From assembly GCA_965198695.1 (NCBI GenBank), contig CBDAPW010000002.1, forward strand, positions 37,768 through 101,767: a stretch of DNA of 64,000 bases. The letters are read 5' to 3'. The first letter of the stretch is position 1. The number at the start of each line of letters is the position of its first letter. This DNA comes from Solirubrobacteraceae bacterium (lineage in GTDB: Bacteria > Actinomycetota > Thermoleophilia > Solirubrobacterales > Solirubrobacteraceae). Below are positions 17,984 to 23,895 of the stretch, piece after piece. A program made the position numbers and the translations under genes. The notes beneath the pieces were generated by a model. The model made no database searches and was not told the origin of the DNA. It saw nothing but the letters and a program-made list of their open reading frames with translations.

Positions 17984-19285
17984 TCAGCTCGCGTGGCGCT
18001 GGGGGCTGGCGAGAAGCACCTCGCGCGGCAGCCGGCCGTAGCGGAAGCTGACGCTGACCCGCTCGGCCCGGTAGCCGGTCGCGGTGAAGCTGATGAGCAG
18101 CTTCTGGCCGGCGACGTAGCGAGCCCCGCGGAGCCCGGCGAGCAGGCGCTCGACGCCGCGCGTGCCGCTCGCGCGCCTGGTGCGGTGCGAGCGCGAGCAG
18201 CCGTGTCCGGCACAGCTGACGACCACGTGGGTCCGCGCCGGGAAGCGACCGACCTTGATCTGGCTGAGCCGGGTGCGGGAACGGTTCCAGGTCCAGCGGA
18301 TCACCAGCTTGATCTTGAGCGTGTGTGGGGCGTGGGAGACCGGCACGGTGGTCGCCACCGGAGTGGTACTGACCGGGGAGGAAGTGGGGGTGGTGGTTGT
18401 GGTCGTGGTGGTGGCCGGCGTGGTCGTGGTTGGCGTGGTGGTCGTCGGCGTGGGTGTGGGCGTCGGCGCCGGGGGCGCCGGGGCCGTCTGGCCGAAGCCG
18501 TACACATCACCGGTCTGCCCGAACAGGCGGTAGCCGGGCGCGGTGGTGTTCGCCACGGCGACGATCGGTGCGGGCAGGGATTGGGAGCCGAGCGAGCCGT
18601 CGAACGGTGCGTCGCCGAAGGCGTAGATGCCGCCGTCGGCACCGGCGAGCCAGTAGCCCTTGCCGTCGGGGGTCGCGGTGATGCCGATGATCGGTTTGTT
18701 GAGCACCTGGCCGGTCAGGTCGCCGTAGCTGGTGGCGTCGCCATAGGGGTAGACGCTGCCATCGGAGCCGACCAGCCAGTAGCCGTTGCCGTCCGGGGTC
18801 GCCGCGATCCCCACAATCGGAGCCGGTGGTTTCTCTGATCCGAGCGAGCCGTAGAACGATGCGTCGCCGAACGAATAGATCCCGCCGTCGGAGCCGACCA
18901 GCCAGTACCCGTTGCCATCGTGGGTCGGGGCGACACCCACGATCGGGGCGTTGATCGTCGTGCCGGCCAGCGAGCCCTCAAAGGGCGCGTTGCCGAAGCT
19001 GAACACCCCACCGTCACTGGCCACCAGCCAGTAGCCGCCCCCGCTCGGGGTGGCCGCCATGGCGACGATCGGCTTGGACAGAGCCATCGAGGCGGTGCCG
19101 CCGTAGCCGCCCGCACCGCCGAAGGCCTGCACTCCACCGGTGGAGTCGACCTCCCAGTAGGCGCTGATGCTCGCCGGATCCTGGGCGGCGCCGACGATGC
19201 TCGCCGCCGCGGCGGTGCCGGCCCCCAGCGCCAGAACCACGACGATCGTCCACACCGCCACGCGACGTGTGCTCACCCACCCCAT
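17984..19285 (-). CDS. Secreted protein with about six 42-aa YWLV.SDGG repeats, P/T linker and basic C-terminal domain
   Basis: Signal peptide RRVAVWTIVVVLALGAGTAAAA, repeats and poly-Thr linker seen directly. Start approximate. Confidence 0.85.
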   Translation of the reverse strand: MGWVSTRRVAVWTIVVVLALGAGTAAAASIVGAAQDPASISAYWEVDSTGGVQAFGGAGGYGGTASMALSKPIVAMAATPSGGGYWLVASDGGVFSFGNAPFEGSLAGTTINAPIVGVAPTHDGNGYWLVGSDGGIYSFGDASFYGSLGSEKPPAPIVGIAATPDGNGYWLVGSDGSVYPYGDATSYGDLTGQVLNKPIIGITATPDGKGYWLAGADGGIYAFGDAPFDGSLGSQSLPAPIVAVANTTAPGYRLFGQTGDVYGFGQTAPAPPAPTPTPTPTTTTPTTTTPATTTTTTTTPTSSPVSTTPVATTVPVSHAPHTLKIKLVIRWTWNRSRTRLSQIKVGRFPARTHVVVSCAGHGCSRSHRTRRASGTRGVERLLAGLRGARYVAGQKLLISFTATGYRAERVSVSFRYGRLPREVLLASPQRHAS

Positions 19286-19328
19286 GCCTAGGGGTTTTGT
19301 ATCAGCCGACCGCACGCTCCAGCCTGCC

Positions 19329-21296
19329 TCAGCACTGGAGCTGATGACGAGTGCGCTTCTGCTCGTACATGGCGGCGTCCGCCTCGCTGACCAGGTCGGC
19401 CAGGGGCCGGCCTGGAGTGGCTCGGGCAATGGCCCAGCCGACGCTGGCGGTGACCGTTCCGGCCATCGGGTGCTCGAGCAACTCAGAGCTCAAGGTGGCC
19501 GCGATCATCTCCGCGCGCAGGCCTGCGGCGGTCGGGTCGGCGGCGTTGAAGAACGCGAGGAACTCGTCTCCGGCATGCCGGGCGAGGAGGGCGTCGGAGC
19601 CCAGCGATCGGGCCAACTGCTCGGCGGCCGCGCACAGGACCTCGTCTCCGACGTCGTGTCCGTGCCGGTCGTTGACGCGCTTGAAACGATCGAGGTCGAT
19701 GAACAGCACGGCTGCTGATGCCTCGCCGCGCAGATCGTTCAGCTGCGCTTCGGCGCCGGAGCTGAAGGCTCGGCGATTCAACAGCCCGGTGAGGGAGTCG
19801 TGACTCGCGAGGTAGTGGGCATGATCGTGTTCCTCTCGCAGTTTGCGCTCGGCCTCGACACGATCGGTGACGTCGGTCTGAACTCCGATGTATTGCAGGA
19901 CCCGTCCGCGTCGATCGTGCACGGGTGCGAGGTGGACATCGCACCAGTACGTGGTGCCGTCCTTGCGGAAATTGAGCACCGTCACGCGGCACTCTCGGCC
20001 CTCGCGCATCGCGGCGCCCATCTCGGCAATCGCACCGGAGTCGGTTCCCTCTCCTTGCACGAACTTGCAGTCGCGGCCCGCGATCTCGTCGGCACCGTAG
20101 CCCGTCAGCCGCTCGAATGCCGGGTTGACGTAGATGATGGGCATCCCGGCTTGGACGGCGTCGGCGATCACCACGCCGCTCGTCGCCGAGGCCAGAGCAC
20201 GGTCTCTGACCTCCAGGGTGGTGCCCTGGGTATGACCCGCCCTGGCATCCAATACGAGCCGTCGGTCCACCCGGACCGGGTCGGGCGCAGGGCGGCCCAG
20301 ATACCACCCCTGGCCGAGGTCCGCCCCGAGATCGCTGATGGCAGCGAGTTCAGCCTCCGTCTCAATGCCCTCGGCCACCACGCGCACATCGAGTTCGTGG
20401 GCGTAATCGATGAGTGCGCCCACGAGTCGCTGGCGAGGTGAATCCGCGTCGATGCCGCTGATCAACGCGCGGTCGAGCTTGACCACGTCCGGCCGCAGTT
20501 CGTCGAGATAGGTGAGGCTCGAATGCCCGGCGCCCAGATCGTCCAGTGCGACCATCGCCCCTTGTCCGCGGTACTCGTCGAGGATCCGCCGCAGAAACGT
20601 GACGTCGGGGTACTGCTCGGTCTCGACCACCTCGAAGCAGACCCGCTCCATCGACAGACCGAGGCGACGCGCAATCGCCCACGTCGTACGCAGGCACACC
20701 TGAGGGTCATAGATGGCGGTCGGTGTGAAGTTGACGAAGAGAACCTCATCATCGATGAGCTTCGGCATTCCCTGTTCGAGGGCAACGGTCCGGCCCTTGA
20801 GGTCAAGCGTGAAGACGGCTCCGTGGGCTCGAGCGGCAGCGAAGATCTCACCGCCGTTGAGTTCCCGACCCCCGACCTCACCCCGCAGCAGGGACTCATA
20901 ACCATAGGTTCGGCCGTCAGTCAGCGAGACGATCGGCTGCAGGTGGGGATAGAGAGCGGAACCGTTGAGCAGATCGGGAAGCCATTCGGTACGCGCACGG
21001 GTGAGAACGTCGGCGACGGGCAGCGCAACGCCCGCAGAGCGTCCGCTCAGGGGAGCGGCGAGCAGCGCGGCCCGTTCGGAGTAGGACAGGGCGTCGAGGA
21101 GCGCCGCGAGACGATCGCACCAACCTGGGCCCTCGAGCTGGAGGCCGTCGGCCTGCTCGAGCAGGACCCCGACCCTGTCTCTCACATGACGCCGCTCGGC
21201 GATCAGGACCACTCCACTGATCGCCTCGGAGTCGGCGGCGGTCTGACAATCACACGCGTGACTGCCACAGGCGTTGGCCAGCACTGAAGCGTCCAT
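19329..21296 (-). CDS. EAL - PAS(LOV-like) - GGDEF c-di-GMP signalling protein
   Basis: QPIV..YESLLR, DDLGAGHSSL, KLD, EGIET. GRDCKFVQG...NFRKDG...VQTDVT. DLDRFKRVND, AGDEF. Confidence 0.92.
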   Translation of the reverse strand: MDASVLANACGSHACDCQTAADSEAISGVVLIAERRHVRDRVGVLLEQADGLQLEGPGWCDRLAALLDALSYSERAALLAAPLSGRSAGVALPVADVLTRARTEWLPDLLNGSALYPHLQPIVSLTDGRTYGYESLLRGEVGGRELNGGEIFAAARAHGAVFTLDLKGRTVALEQGMPKLIDDEVLFVNFTPTAIYDPQVCLRTTWAIARRLGLSMERVCFEVVETEQYPDVTFLRRILDEYRGQGAMVALDDLGAGHSSLTYLDELRPDVVKLDRALISGIDADSPRQRLVGALIDYAHELDVRVVAEGIETEAELAAISDLGADLGQGWYLGRPAPDPVRVDRRLVLDARAGHTQGTTLEVRDRALASATSGVVIADAVQAGMPIIYVNPAFERLTGYGADEIAGRDCKFVQGEGTDSGAIAEMGAAMREGRECRVTVLNFRKDGTTYWCDVHLAPVHDRRGRVLQYIGVQTDVTDRVEAERKLREEHDHAHYLASHDSLTGLLNRRAFSSGAEAQLNDLRGEASAAVLFIDLDRFKRVNDRHGHDVGDEVLCAAAEQLARSLGSDALLARHAGDEFLAFFNAADPTAAGLRAEMIAATLSSELLEHPMAGTVTASVGWAIARATPGRPLADLVSEADAAMYEQKRTRHQLQC

Positions 21297-21378: not shown

Positions 21379-21434
21379 GGAATGAGCTGGCCGCGCACGC
21401 TGAGCCAGGCCTGCGATGTGATCCTCTGACCCGG
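21379..21434 (-). pseudogene. Diverged remnant of a yceI 3' end (direct repeat of 23384-23439)
   Basis: 47/56 nt identical to the yceI end. Translates PGQRITSQAWLSVRGQLIP versus PGQMITSKAWLSVRGKLVP. Confidence 0.75.
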
Positions 21435-21436
21435 CG

Positions 21437-23266
21437 TCAGCTGATCGACCTGAGGAAGCGGCGCTGTTCGGCGCGGCTGCCCCGGGTCAGTGGCCGGGCG
21501 GCGATGGCGATCTGGCGGACCACTCCGTGATGGACCTCGAGCACGGCGGTGACCGATCCGTCCCGGCTGAGGTACCACCGGTTGGTCCCGATGCTGAACG
21601 CCCGGCCGAGCTTCAGGTGCCCCCGCGCCACGGCGAGGGTGCTGCCGGGGTGCACGCCGTGCACTGCGGAGTGGACGTTGGCGGTGGCGATCCATGCCAC
21701 CCGGTTGGCGTAGCGCGCTCGGGTGGCGCGGGGCAGAGTGGTCAGCTCGCGGGGGGAGGCGTAGCCGGCCCGGATGACCGCCGGGGTCTGACAGGTTGAG
21801 TCCAGTCGGCTCGCGCGGGCGGACGCCACAGCGACCTGCTCGGGGGTCGCGCCGAGGCGCAGCGCTCCGAGCTGGGTCCCGCTGACCGGACTGGCGGAGC
21901 AGTCGTTCAGTTCGGTGGTCTGCGGGGTCGCGAGGATCTCGCCGTAGGGGTTGATCTGGATGGTGACGGTGCCGGTCGCGTAGTCACCGCTGGCGTCAGA
22001 GACTGTGAAGCCGATCGTGTCGCTACCGCTGTAGCCCGGGTTCGGGGTGTAGGTAAAGGACCCGTCGGGGTTCACCGCGCTCGTCCCGTGGGTCGGGGCG
22101 GTGCTCTGGGTCGCGGTCAGGGTATCCCCGGCCGGACCCCGGCTGTCAGCCTGGATGAGGCCGTTGGCCGCGCTCACCGTCAGGGTCATGTTCTCCTGAA
22201 CAGTGTCGAGGACCGGGCTGGTCACGGTGATCGGGTCGGGGTAGGAGAACACCACCTTGCCGGTGCCGGACTGCACCCCGCTGGCGTAGCTCACGCTGGT
22301 GGCGCTGGATGCGGCATAGCTCGAGCCGCCCCCACCGCCGCCACCGCCACCGCCGGGCTCGTCGTCGGTGGCGCAGGCAAAATCGGAGGCGCCGCCGCCA
22401 CCACCCCCGCCACCGGCGTAACCGCCACCGCCACCGCCACCGCCGAGTGACCTGCCGCCGGTACCGCCGGGGGACGGAGCGCTGCTGAGCTGCCCGGACG
22501 CGCCGACGCTCCCGTCATCACCCGGGAAGGGGTCGCCATCGCGGCAGGTGCTGCCTGACCCGACCGTGCCACCGGGTCCGGGGTTGCCGCCGGTGCCGCT
22601 CGCGCTGGCCCCGCCACCGCCGCTACCGCCGCCCAACGGCAGGGCACCGGCCTGGGGCCCGTCGGGAACGGTCTGGCCTGGCTGGCCGGATCCCGCGCTG
22701 GCACCCGAGAAGGGCTGGCCGCCCGCGCCGCCGGCGCCGTCGGTCAGGGATCGACCCTCGACCAGGGCAGCCGTACCCGAACCACCACCGCCACCGGCGA
22801 TGAACTCCGGGAGGGCGCCGGGAGATCCGGGGAGGACGTCGCTGGCGCCGCCGCCACCCGATCCGTTCCCGCCCGGCTTGCCACCGCCGTTGGTTCCGGC
22901 GGTGTGATAGCCGCCGACGCCACCGACCGTGAGCGTGAACAGCGATCCTGGCGACGTGTTGAGCGTGCCCGACACCTCCCCGCCGAGCCCGCCCGGCCCG
23001 GGAGAGTTCTCCGCCCCGCCGCCGCCCGCGGCGCCATAGGCGGCCACCGTCACCCTGCTCACACCGATCGGCACGGTGTAGGTCGCGGCCGCGCCGGAAT
23101 ACCCGAACGTGTCCGTGCAGACCCCGGCGGTGCACACCGGAGCCGGACTCGCGGCGCTGGCCGCAACCGCTACCGCCCCCGCGGCGGCCACGGTCATCGC
23201 TGCCGCAGCCGCCCCTGCGCCCACGCGCGTGCGCAGCGATCCCACAGCCCAGTCCCGACGTGCCAT
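21437..23266 (-). CDS. Secreted glycine-rich domain + Ig-like (Big_9/cadherin-like) protein with basic C-terminal domain
   Basis: Ala-rich signal peptide, YTVPIGVSRVTVAAYGAAGG, poly-Gly runs, VNPDGSFTYTPNPGYSGSDTIGFTVSD. Confidence 0.85.
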   Translation of the reverse strand: MARRDWAVGSLRTRVGAGAAAAAMTVAAAGAVAVAASAASPAPVCTAGVCTDTFGYSGAAATYTVPIGVSRVTVAAYGAAGGGGAENSPGPGGLGGEVSGTLNTSPGSLFTLTVGGVGGYHTAGTNGGGKPGGNGSGGGGASDVLPGSPGALPEFIAGGGGGSGTAALVEGRSLTDGAGGAGGQPFSGASAGSGQPGQTVPDGPQAGALPLGGGSGGGGASASGTGGNPGPGGTVGSGSTCRDGDPFPGDDGSVGASGQLSSAPSPGGTGGRSLGGGGGGGGYAGGGGGGGGASDFACATDDEPGGGGGGGGGGSSYAASSATSVSYASGVQSGTGKVVFSYPDPITVTSPVLDTVQENMTLTVSAANGLIQADSRGPAGDTLTATQSTAPTHGTSAVNPDGSFTYTPNPGYSGSDTIGFTVSDASGDYATGTVTIQINPYGEILATPQTTELNDCSASPVSGTQLGALRLGATPEQVAVASARASRLDSTCQTPAVIRAGYASPRELTTLPRATRARYANRVAWIATANVHSAVHGVHPGSTLAVARGHLKLGRAFSIGTNRWYLSRDGSVTAVLEVHHGVVRQIAIAARPLTRGSRAEQRRFLRSIS

Positions 23267-23373: not shown

Positions 23374-23895
23374 TCAGCCGGCGGGGACGAGCTTGCCCCG
23401 CACGCTGAGCCACGCCTTGGACGTGATCATCTGACCCGGTCCACGGGACATGCCGAGCTCGCGCAAGCTGACCCGCGCGACGGCGTCGATCTCAAAGCCG
23501 TCACCGGCCGGCTTCACGTGCGCGGTCGGCACCAGCGGCACCGACCGTCCCGCGGCGCTGAGGGTGCCGGTGACGTGGAGATGATCGCCGTGCACCTCGA
23601 CCTCGGAGGAGGCGAACACCACCTCAGGGTGGCTCGCCACGTTGAAGAAATCCCCGGAACGGAGATGCTCGTCGCGCTGGGCATTGCGGGTGTCCAGGCT
23701 GGCCGCCCCGATGACCAGACGGATCGCCGGCTCGGCCGAGAGGTCAAGGTGCCCCTCATATGACGCAAAGGTGCCGCGCACCCGCACCGCGCCCCACATG
23801 GTGCGGCTGACGAACTCGACCGCCGAGGCATCCGGATCGAGGATCCAGCTGCCGTTCTGCAGCGACGGCGTCGGGGTGGCATCAGTGGCGCTCAT
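23374..23895 (-). CDS. YceI family lipid/polyisoprenoid-binding protein
   Basis: WILDPDASAVEF, SLDTRNAQRDEHLRSGDFF, HPEVVF, VTGTL. Confidence 0.93.
   Translation of the reverse strand: MSATDATPTPSLQNGSWILDPDASAVEFVSRTMWGAVRVRGTFASYEGHLDLSAEPAIRLVIGAASLDTRNAQRDEHLRSGDFFNVASHPEVVFASSEVEVHGDHLHVTGTLSAAGRSVPLVPTAHVKPAGDGFEIDAVARVSLRELGMSRGPGQMITSKAWLSVRGKLVPAG

Follow-up and report, generated by a model that had tools for sequence, protein, structure and literature searches.

A candidate light-responsive c-di-GMP enzyme with the domain order Cys module-EAL-LOV-GGDEF and an unusually altered flavin pocket in a Solirubrobacteraceae bacterium

The gene described here encodes an EAL, a LOV and a GGDEF domain in the reverse of the usual GGDEF-EAL order, which raises the questions (i) whether this order is a genuine and inherited architecture, (ii) whether the two c-di-GMP domains could both be active, and (iii) whether light could control either of them. 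The gene lies in a stretch of 64,000 nucleotides of a Solirubrobacteraceae bacterium, hereafter the window, and its features are given below in window coordinates.

19329..21296, minus strand: whole gene, 655 aa plus stop, with the layout N-terminal Cys module-EAL-LOV-GGDEF
20985..21296, minus strand: N-terminal module, residues 1-104, composed of a Cys-bearing tail (1-20) and a small alpha/beta domain (28-104)
21246..21269, minus strand: CGSHACDC motif, residues 10-17 (C10, H13, C15, C17)
20289..20984, minus strand: EAL phosphodiesterase domain, residues 105-336, all catalytic residues kept
20205..20288, minus strand: EAL-to-LOV spacer, residues 337-364
19857..20204, minus strand: LOV domain, residues 365-480
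20067..20069, minus strand: codon (tgc) of Cys410, the predicted flavin C4a adduct Cys (AsLOV2 C450 equivalent)
19941..19943, minus strand: codon of Cys452, in place of the flavin-contacting Asn (AsLOV2 N492)
19791..19874, minus strand: LOV-to-GGDEF helical linker, 28 residues from D475 (D of DVT) to L502 (L of DSLT)
19347..19808, minus strand: GGDEF domain, residues 497-650, with AGDEF and no RxxD I-site
19560..19574, minus strand: AGDEF active-site motif, residues 575-579

The reading frame at 19329..21296 is uninterrupted over 655 aa. Using Pfam, EAL (E 2.7e-48), PAS_9/PAS (E 2.6e-21) and GGDEF (E 2.4e-36) domains were located at residues 105-336, 365-480 and 497-650 (window 20289-20984, 19857-20204 and 19347-19808, respectively), in the order and, to within a few tens of bases, at the coordinates originally predicted from the sequence. 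The motifs named in the original prediction were likewise recovered, namely ESL (as ESLLR) and DDLGAGHSSL in the EAL domain, a variant LOV motif (GRDCKFVQG) and the replacement of the WN Asn by Cys (YWC, C452), AGDEF (as HAGDEF) with GSDA at the position of the RxxD, and CGSHACDC at the N-terminus. The observation thus held in all details and its interpretation was supported in part. The AF2 model of the 655-aa protein has a mean pLDDT of 90.7, and 30 full-length orthologues were found with 53-82% identity and a coverage of 95-100% of the length; by domain the identity was 85-92% for EAL versus 58-71% for GGDEF, the least conserved one. Judged from these comparisons the gene is a real one for a four-part signalling enzyme (Cys-bearing N-terminal module, EAL, LOV, and GGDEF). 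This enzyme probably adjusts c-di-GMP levels to light, although its flavin pocket is unusually altered.

The original prediction had named a common and light-independent architecture as evidence against a light switch. The architecture indeed proved not to be rare within its family, the EAL-LOV-GGDEF order being present in 89/120 of the best homologue clusters and the conventional order in only 2/120, and canonical versions being carried by cultured Klenkia species, so that this objection holds by half. The family hosts include Klenkia, Quadrisphaera, Deinococcus, and Solirubrobacteraceae, and as far as can be judged from the homologues the reverse order characterises a single EAL subfamily, one with an undescribed N-terminal Cys module. 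This EAL subfamily is also found fused to LOV-GGDEF, GAF-GGDEF, PAS-GGDEF or bare GGDEF, whereas two Deinococcus species carry overlapping genes for an N-terminal module-EAL protein and then a separate LOV-GGDEF protein. Solo proteins of the N-terminal module and EAL, without LOV-GGDEF, occur in many phyla and, together with the split Deinococcus gene pair, bear out the proposed origin from a stand-alone-type EAL and a LOV-GGDEF unit. The Deinococcus pair and the varied GGDEF fusions were counted in favor of a partnership of the two units.

In a tree of the N-terminal module-EAL region covering two actinobacterial fused clades, which may go back to one fusion or to two (FastTree, support values not printed), the solo EALs inside the clade appear to have been derived through loss of LOV-GGDEF and not to be ancestral. 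Over the history of the clade LOV-GGDEF was repeatedly lost or decayed and the N-terminal module-EAL part was always retained. The same genome has a decaying paralogue with His at the position of the adduct Cys, and four shortened EAL-LOV proteins, three of which kept the adduct Cys, have tails that resemble frameshift products. With a match at E 1e-60 in only 2/401 genomes of a phylum-wide sample the distribution is patchy. The Solirubrobacteraceae clade to which the gene belongs is, by its sequence features, a derived one (AGDEF, loss of the I-site, Asn replaced by Cys, changes of Arg positions, and an extra heptad). The window neighbours include secreted repeat proteins, a two-component system, a YceI and a GAF protein, and tblastn found none of six of them at seven related loci. 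The next-best PAS-GGDEF-EAL protein of the genome (L085) has no LOV motif. A DICT domain between EAL and LOV was looked for in four far-family members and was absent from them. In the literature searched we found no characterised member of this sizeable actinobacterial family, and neither the EAL-LOV-GGDEF nor the EAL-PAS-GGDEF order was found in it (the LOV census lying outside this literature).

In the EAL domain the residues E134, R138, N189, E222, E225, D252, D253, K273, D275, E309, E312, and Q329 are invariant across 103 aligned sequences, and its model superimposes on solved EAL domains with TM 0.8-0.88 (Foldseek). Residues 1-336 are predicted to form a first unit, a catalytically competent EAL phosphodiesterase of a distinct subfamily. 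The following spacer has a low pLDDT (53-62 around residues 351-370), and relatives show a continuous range of EAL-to-LOV distances (81-141 residues from anchor to anchor), with no mod-7 (heptad) preference.

The connection between LOV and GGDEF is of another kind. The linker is a continuous helix (477-498) in the AF2 model, is 28 residues long in 25/29 close-clade sequences, and in 80/81 family sequences has a length of 21, 28 or 35 residues, i.e., it is heptad-quantised; a Klenkia orthologue has the 21-residue form. Since the length of this linker is quantised in heptads and that of the EAL-LOV spacer varies freely, it is probably the cyclase, and not the EAL domain, that is coupled to light. 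The LOV-GGDEF half had the cyclase MsLadC as its top structural match (PDB 8C05; Foldseek E 2.3e-23). By phmmer the two align collinearly along 279 residues (E 6.3e-40), the linker having the only gap, one of 7 residues. Both proteins have a LOV domain followed directly by GGDEF via a heptad-patterned helical linker and the same DVT and DxLT anchor motifs, and for natural LadCs two heptad-patterned linker classes, of 21 and of 35 residues, have been defined (PMC10396304). Apart from these linker lengths, LadCs are marked by a GG(D/E)EF motif and by standing alone as LOV-GGDEF proteins, whereas the protein here has the N-terminal module and EAL in front, a linker of 28 residues (one heptad shorter than in MsLadC), AGDEF, no I-site, and an altered flavin pocket (N492C, R451K, R467G, and N449D). 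LadCs were selected as having exactly one LOV and one GGDEF domain and nothing else (PMC10396304); the N-terminal module and EAL ahead place the present protein outside this definition, and the EAL-adjacent LOV-GGDEF genes of Deinococcus fall within it.

The reading that we favor, and which we hold to be somewhat better than evenly probable, is that of a bifunctional enzyme of two units, an active phosphodiesterase and a LadC-type light-regulated diguanylate cyclase. The second unit (residues 365-655) is predicted to be the cyclase, built of LOV, a coiled-coil helix, and GGDEF, and the protein is probably cytoplasmic and dimeric. Blue light would induce the adduct between Cys410 and the flavin C4a, which would alter the LOV dimer and shift the register of the 28-residue linker, so that the two GGDEF domains would meet productively and c-di-GMP would be made. 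The tethered EAL domain would hold the c-di-GMP level low in the dark and end the signal quickly.

In the GGDEF domain the first residue of the active-site motif is A in 28/31 close-clade sequences, whereas the far family has G there in 46/53 sequences and S in the remaining 7/53, and at the I-site (RxxD, five residues upstream of GGDEF), where 51/53 far-family sequences have RxxD, the protein has GSDA and 30/31 close-clade sequences have Gly. An AGDEF domain is catalytically active in VCA0965 (PMC3974145), and that of NbdA was described as degenerate. The AGDEF domain of the present protein may be active as a cyclase. The protein might instead be essentially a phosphodiesterase, in which AGDEF makes no c-di-GMP and has a regulatory role instead, through GTP binding or dimerisation, and in which LOV, photoactive or not, modulates EAL indirectly via quaternary structure. 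Degenerate GGDEF domains acting as regulatory modules are known from PdeA/CC3396 and similar proteins. We consider this unlikely, but to be taken seriously, as it would agree with the changed motif and lost I-site in a clade whose relatives keep GGDEF and RxxD, with GGDEF being the fastest-evolving of the domains, with the retention of the N-terminal module-EAL part through each loss of LOV-GGDEF, and with the degenerate AGDEF of NbdA. These same points (NbdA, loss of the I-site, low conservation of GGDEF, and the repeated loss or decay of LOV-GGDEF) were counted against the two-unit reading. Yet the known metal-, guanine-, and phosphate-binding GGDEF residues (D534, N542, D543, R573, G576-F579, and K647) are all conserved in 29-31 of the 31 close-clade sequences, and the variable, disordered EAL-LOV spacer would be a poor signal conduit to EAL. 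The active AGDEF of VCA0965 (PMC3974145) and the heptad-quantised LOV-GGDEF linker, a hallmark of active sensor-cyclases (PMC10396304), also argue for a working cyclase.

The assignment of the PAS domain to the LOV type, with an adduct Cys (Cys410) and the terminal Gln (Q473) as originally predicted, was confirmed by the PDB, NCBIfam, and alignment comparisons. The 60 best matches listed in a phmmer search of the PDB were all named LOV receptors or LOV-type sensors (best E 6.6e-33), the NCBIfam models for the YtvA family (E 5.7e-35) and for blue-light histidine-kinase LOV domains (E 7.6e-35) both matched over the LOV part, and all of these E-values are far beyond chance. The modelled structure superimposed on the solved LOV domain 9vf7 with TM 0.94 and an rmsd of 0.8 A (Foldseek). 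Cys410, encoded by the tgc at 20069..20067 within 'ggc cgc gac tgc aag ttc gtg caa gga' (GRDCKFVQG), aligns with C450 of AsLOV2 and C62 of YtvA. Cys occupies the adduct position in 31/31 sequences of the close clade and in 49/53 of the far family, the other four far-family members having Met or Leu. Compared to GXNCRFLQ the motif differs by N to D, R to K, and L to V. The equivalents of N482 (N442), Q513 (Q473), and Q454 are each kept in 31/31 close-clade sequences.

The changes in the flavin pocket lie elsewhere. The N492 position is Cys in 30/31 close-clade sequences versus Asn in 53/53 far-family sequences, and the equivalents of the Arg residues contacting the FMN phosphate are K411 (R451) and G427 (R467), so that neither Arg is kept. 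Across the crown clade the R451 position is K/R/S/N/T and the R467 position G/R/A/S, with 6/27 sequences having no basic residue at either site; R467 shows little conservation in the canonical far family as well. In the crown clade the pocket positions do not exceed the remaining LOV core in conservation (mean entropy 0.74 vs 0.75, p = 0.48), whereas those of the canonical far family do (0.66 vs 1.21, p = 0.0065). The lost or variable phosphate Arg residues, N492C, and this low pocket conservation were counted against the two-unit reading. In AsLOV2, N492A and L453V retain FMN binding and the photocycle (PMC3903614), so that the change of N492 to Cys makes a photoreceptor function less certain but still plausible. 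The LOV domain may bind flavin and photocycle, and the enzyme may be light-gated, in a clade that has lost both the contact made by N492 and those usually made to the FMN phosphate.

An alternative that we regard as quite improbable is that the domain is no longer a photoreceptor and has become a LOV-derived PAS with another or no cofactor, acting as a sensor of redox state or of a ligand, or as a plain dimerisation module, in which case the N-terminal Cys motif would make the protein redox-gated and not light-gated. The pocket changes would fit this alternative, as would the Met or Leu of the four far-family members and the His of the paralogue at the adduct position, and the conserved Cys triad and His at the N-terminus. 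It is however at odds with the adduct Cys being kept in every close-clade sequence although adjacent positions vary freely, and with the invariance of the ring-contacting N482, Q454, Q513, F394, W451, and G471 in the close clade. The hosts Klenkia, Quadrisphaera, Deinococcus, and Solirubrobacteraceae are generally known from soil and rock surfaces, a setting in which sensing light would be plausible. The photocycle of AsLOV2 without N492 (PMC3903614) likewise speaks for a photoreceptor.

The N-terminal module matched no Pfam family even at E = 1, residues 1-104 matched no NCBIfam model, and a PDB fold search with the module gave nothing below E = 1. It is modelled with pLDDT 80-97 at residues 21-100 and low values at residues 1-20. 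A profile of the module retrieved 382 representatives, with the module at the protein N-terminus in nearly all of the 150 listed. C10, C15, and C17 are conserved not only in the close clade but also among the solo EALs and in the far family; in 30 sequences of several phyla C15 is invariant and always paired with another Cys in a CxxC and/or CxC arrangement. The stand-alone EALs with this N-terminus (from Myxococcus, Allochromatium, Deinococcus, Phycisphaerales, and others) have the same invariant-Cys module and EAL subfamily; they differ in being without LOV-GGDEF and are uncharacterised, their module falling outside any Pfam family. Any role of the Cys module is hypothetical, and redox gating via CGSHACDC, though the motif is truly conserved, is speculation. 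Very doubtful, in our estimate, is a two-input integrator that would join a redox- or metal-sensing Cys module to a LOV domain with a modified chromophore or redox-gated photochemistry. In its first part, the module (C10, H13, C15, C17, and H37) could regulate EAL as a thiol switch, Zn or Fe-S sensor in about 380 representative proteins of several phyla; in its second part, the clade-specific C452 beside Cys410 and the lost phosphate Arg could give rise to non-canonical LOV photochemistry, with a modified chromophore or a thiol-dependent, redox-gated reaction unlike that of canonical LOV domains.

That the open reading frame is a chance or decaying one without function, for which the decaying paralogue might be cited, is practically inconceivable and already refuted by the conservation data as we read them, given 655 open codons, three domains at E 1e-21 to 1e-48, 30 full-length orthologues (53-82% identity) with catalytic residues kept, and the mean pLDDT of 90.7.

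Returning to the two-unit enzyme, the only characterised EAL-photosensor-GGDEF order that we found in the literature searched is that of Cph2, which is also the only EAL-GAF-GGDEF protein found there. Synechocystis Cph2 (Sll0821) has the layout GAF-GAF-GGDEF*-EAL-GAF(CBCR)-GGDEF, in which a blue/green CBCR, placed after an active EAL, drives an active GGDEF (PMC10124867). Its C-terminal part thus resembles the present protein in having EAL, then a blue-light-responsive sensor, then GGDEF in one chain. As its sensor Cph2 uses a bilin-binding CBCR GAF, the present protein a flavin-type LOV, and in front of EAL Cph2 has a phytochrome module together with a dead GGDEF where the present protein has the Cys module. 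Homology is limited to the EAL and GGDEF families, the sensor and N-terminal modules being unrelated, and the likeness would be one of working and not of descent, the activities here being predicted. In the LOV-GGDEF-EAL protein SL2 of Synechococcus elongatus blue light controls c-di-GMP turnover and acts on the C-terminal EAL. SL2-type proteins share the three domain types, but in the present protein EAL is N-terminal and separated from LOV by a variable spacer of low confidence. YkuI of Bacillus subtilis (PDB 2BAS/2W27) also has EAL and then a PAS-like domain, aligned by Foldseek over about 420 columns of both domains, but it lacks both a GGDEF domain and a LOV signature, and the identity is only 15%. 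To our knowledge no cofactor is known for the PAS-like domain of YkuI.

LOV-regulated c-di-GMP enzymes serve as models for sensor-effector control and as raw material for optogenetic tools. A natural fusion (two genes in Deinococcus) of a light-regulated cyclase with an opposing phosphodiesterase could reveal how cells build fast-resetting or local c-di-GMP light signals. The 28-residue linker, a third natural class between those of 21 and 35 residues in LadC, offers a ready test of the heptad-register model, and the natural pocket series, with N492C and loss of the phosphate Arg while the adduct Cys is kept, bears on the minimal needs of a LOV domain. To this is added an undescribed Cys-bearing N-terminal module on EAL domains across many phyla. 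The current understanding is not overturned by this gene; known principles are extended to an uncharacterised family with cultured hosts (Klenkia species).

The focal gene lies in a window with a GC content of about 70% and has the following features, with domains and the first motif given in residues of the protein and the other features in window positions:

19329..21296, minus strand: focal open reading frame, 655 codons, uninterrupted
residues 105-336, minus strand: EAL domain (Pfam, E 2.7e-48)
residues 365-480, minus strand: PAS-type domains (Pfam PAS_9, E 2.6e-21)
residues 497-650, minus strand: GGDEF domain (Pfam, E 2.4e-36)
residues 10-17, minus strand: CGSHACDC motif
20069..20067, minus strand: codon tgc of Cys410 in GRDCKFVQG

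The domain order EAL, PAS, GGDEF of the original prediction was borne out by Pfam, its coordinates agreed to within a few tens of bases, and every motif that it quoted was found in the protein. The observation therefore stands, and the interpretation put on it is supported in part. The EAL domain carries ESLLR and DDLGAGHSSL, the PAS domain has YWC at the position of the canonical WN and a C-terminal GVQTDVT that includes Gln473, and the GGDEF domain reads HAGDEF, with 'GSDA' occupying the position of the RxxD I-site. The AlphaFold2 model of the whole protein had a mean pLDDT of 90.7.

The PAS domain is of the LOV type, as had been proposed. A PDB sequence search with residues ~362-495 returned LOV domains as top matches (best E 6.6e-33), and the matches listed included phototropin, YtvA-like, PpSB1 and aureochrome LOV domains and the LOV-activated cyclase 8C05. 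Two NCBIfam models also matched there, that of the YtvA family (E 5.7e-35) and that of the blue-light LOV histidine kinases (E 7.6e-35), and the modelled LOV core superimposed on the solved LOV domain 9vf7 at 0.8 A (TM 0.94).

Homologs were taken as the best 120 clusters from a search of 5.8-billion proteins. The reverse domain order, which had been singled out as notable, is real, but as a trait of the family rather than a one-off: EAL-LOV-GGDEF was found in 89 of the 120 best clusters and the conventional LOV-GGDEF-EAL in only two, beside solo proteins of 360-390 amino acids that consist of the N-terminal Cys module (Nterm) and EAL (22 clusters), Nterm-EAL-LOV truncations (six) and EAL-GGDEF (one). 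The close clade (53-82% identity) has Solirubrobacteraceae MAGs as its named members. The far family (~40% identity to the focal protein) was found in the named genomes Klenkia terrae, K. soli, K. marina, K. sesuvii, Aquipuribacter sp. and 'Jannaschia sp. R86511' and in MAGs of Quadrisphaera, Motilibacteraceae, Frankiales and Mycobacteriales. A divergent fused version (LOV identity 32%, 49-residue linker), with Pro where the adduct Cys would be, occurs in an Armatimonadaceae MAG. Among 401 species-representative genomes of the phylum the distribution is patchy, with a match at E 1e-60 in two (the focal genome and one other) and no family member in two genomes of the focal genus; no synteny was conserved around the related loci. 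A literature search for 'EAL-LOV-GGDEF' found no paper with that term.

Just upstream of the focal gene, a 56-bp direct repeat (84% identity; 21379-21434 and 23384-23439) flanks a Gly-rich Big_9 surface-protein gene (21437-23266). The repeat brackets this gene and copies the 3' terminus of the yceI-like gene (23374-23895), an arrangement that fits an insertion of the Big_9 gene between yceI and the focal gene. The product of the downstream gene (17984-19429, minus strand) is probably secreted; it contains about six GYWLVxxDGGVFxFGDAxFxGS repeats and a Thr/Pro-rich linker, and Pfam gave no match for it at E 0.001. The longest open reading frame of this gene overlaps the focal gene 3' end, so translation probably starts at the internal MGWVSTRR.

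For residues 1-104, the Nterm module, no Pfam family was matched. A model of the module alone (pLDDT 82), compared with PDB structures, gave no relative below E = 1. The module is nevertheless conserved. It opens with a poorly structured tail, in which one Cys (C15 in the focal protein) is invariant and always has a second Cys as its partner in CxxC and/or CxC; a small alpha/beta domain comes next, where a His (H37) is frequent and a Glu (E74) nearly invariant. A profile of the module retrieved 382 representatives at E 0.001 from 1.84 billion proteins, and nearly all of the 150 listed carry it at the protein N-terminus. The majority of the matches listed are solo EAL proteins of 345-405 amino acids, hosted by Myxococcota, Chromatiaceae, Deinococcus, Phycisphaerales, Abditibacteriota and others; longer members continue from Nterm-EAL into LOV-GGDEF, GAF-GGDEF, PAS-GGDEF or bare GGDEF. 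Variants with the module include the following database proteins:

P0178: EAL-GAF-GGDEF
P0229: EAL-PAS-GGDEF
P0125: EAL-GGDEF
P0263: PilZ-Nterm-EAL, the single member with PilZ in front

The module (window 20985-21296; loci L031-L083) is joined almost only to EAL domains, with Actinomycetota among the hosts. It defines an undescribed domain family of ~382 representatives, and the reverse order is a trait of one EAL subfamily. Redox control via the Cys motif is only hypothetical, and the conservation of the motif makes testing worthwhile.

In two Deinococcus species the two halves are encoded separately:

L038 5815..7730: split Nterm-EAL / LOV-GGDEF, Deinococcus altitudinis plasmid
L039 5998..7934: split Nterm-EAL / LOV-GGDEF, D. 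alpinitundrae

The Nterm-EAL genes (356 and 355 amino acids, respectively) overlap the start of the next gene, a separate LOV-GGDEF of 288 or 295 amino acids, by ~20 bases. Since the split is common to two diverged species, it is a genuine two-gene arrangement, not the product of a sequencing frameshift. The next downstream ORFs at both loci resemble transposase genes by eye, which, together with the plasmid location of one locus, suggests mobility. The proposed origin from a stand-alone-type EAL joined to a LOV-GGDEF unit gains support from these adjacent genes as against the fusions elsewhere, and fusion in one lineage with adjacency in another is a classic sign that both units cooperate. 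Inside the close clade, solo and decayed forms were interleaved with fused ones in a FastTree tree (branch supports not inspected), which suggests the reverse process too. The focal genome itself carries a 67%-identical paralogue on another contig (C5:34586-36328; locus L001 2845..4353, minus strand), a decaying 502-amino-acid Nterm-EAL-LOV protein whose LOV motif, GRNHTFVHG, has His in place of both the adduct Cys and Gln454, followed by GGDEF remnants broken by two TGA and one TAG; its EAL catalytic motifs look intact. The c-di-GMP network of this 4.2-Mb genome is rich, with 25 or more additional GGDEF and/or EAL loci, and among the matches examined only the focal gene and the decayed paralogue have a LOV motif.

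The focal protein has the full set of residues by which active EAL phosphodiesterases are defined, and these are invariant in 103 aligned sequences. The GGDEF domain retains the residues that bind metal, guanine and phosphate (D534, N542, D543, R573 and K647) as well as GDEF; its first Gly is Ala in 28 of 31 close-clade sequences, and the I-site is gone. Cyclase activity is plausible, and no more, because the AGDEF protein VCA0965 of Vibrio cholerae is active (PMC3974145) and the AGDEF of NbdA is described as degenerate. The explanation we favour, at somewhat better than even, is a bifunctional enzyme that would combine an active EAL phosphodiesterase with a LOV-regulated cyclase; a protein acting mainly as a phosphodiesterase, with a regulatory AGDEF, is a doubtful alternative.

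The wiring was compared with LadC, the LOV-activated diguanylate cyclases. MsLadC (8C05) was the top Foldseek match of the whole model and is collinear with the LOV-GGDEF half over 279 residues (E 6.3e-40), the sole linker gap being exactly 7 residues. For LadC, linker length was taken as the distance between the Asp of D(I/V)(T/S) and the Leu of DxLT; natural linkers fell into two heptad-patterned classes (21 and 35 residues), and light is proposed to free caged GGDEF domains as the linker extends into a coiled coil (PMC10396304). By this ruler the focal linker has 28 residues, the AlphaFold2 model has an uninterrupted helix spanning residues 477-498, and family linkers (n=81) are multiples of seven in 80 cases (21 in 54, 28 in 25, 35 in one), with one off register. 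The EAL-to-LOV spacer is modelled with low pLDDT, and the EAL-LOV anchor distance, taken outside the crown clade, varies continuously between 81 and 141 and shows no modulo 7 preference. From the heptad-quantised linker as against the freely varying spacer we infer that mechanical coupling links the LOV sensor to the cyclase, with the EAL no more than tethered.

The flavin pocket was compared across clades with the AsLOV2 and YtvA sequences and a list of contact residues as rulers; conservation was expressed as entropy, pocket against the rest of the LOV core, with a permutation test. The far family is canonical (GRNCRxLQG, WWN, RxxD plus GGDEF, 21-residue linker), and its pocket is clearly more conserved than the remaining core (0.66 vs 1.21, p = 0.0065). 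In one far-family sub-branch (L021, L027, L028; P0096, P0110, P0114, P0116), from Aquipuribacter sp., Jannaschia sp. R86511 and Actinomycetales MAGs, Met or Leu replaces the adduct Cys and GGDEF and RxxD are kept; the 'Jannaschia' record may be misnamed, because its protein nests among actinobacterial sequences. AGDEF and I-site loss are already seen in basal close-clade members, and N492 to Cys is a later step. The crown group, which includes the focal gene, has a linker longer by one heptad and K/R/S/N/T at the R451 position (K in the focal protein, which has Gly at R467). Its adduct Cys and ring-contacting residues are invariant, yet mean pocket conservation is at background (0.74 vs 0.75, p = 0.48) because ribityl/phosphate-side positions are hypervariable. 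This pattern, together with the absence of any basic residue from both phosphate positions in 6 of 27 crown-group sequences, constitutes genuine evidence against FMN-phosphate binding of the ordinary kind. Three points stand on the other side: the adduct Cys stays invariant amid such variation; the AsLOV2 variants N492A and L453V retain FMN binding and a photocycle (tau 54 s and 160 s, respectively, vs 80 s; PMC3903614); and natural LOV receptors stay functional without even the active-site Gln (PMC9098866). We consider it improbable that the LOV domain is no longer a photoreceptor.

The favoured bifunctional enzyme has the same layout as, and probably the same logic as, Synechocystis Cph2, in which the EAL is active and a C-terminal blue/green CBCR raises downstream GGEEF activity in blue light, the CBCR-GGEEF accounting for the rise in cellular c-di-GMP (PMC10124867). 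The sensor of Cph2 is a CBCR, whereas the focal protein has a LOV domain as its predicted flavin-based sensor and differs in its N-terminal regulator, and the resemblance would be one of working and not of descent. Within a populated family for which we found no published characterisation, the focal protein is a variant of the LadC and Cph2 kinds, and, with the altered pocket as a meaningful doubt, we infer on good grounds that it is under light control, exerted most likely on the cyclase.
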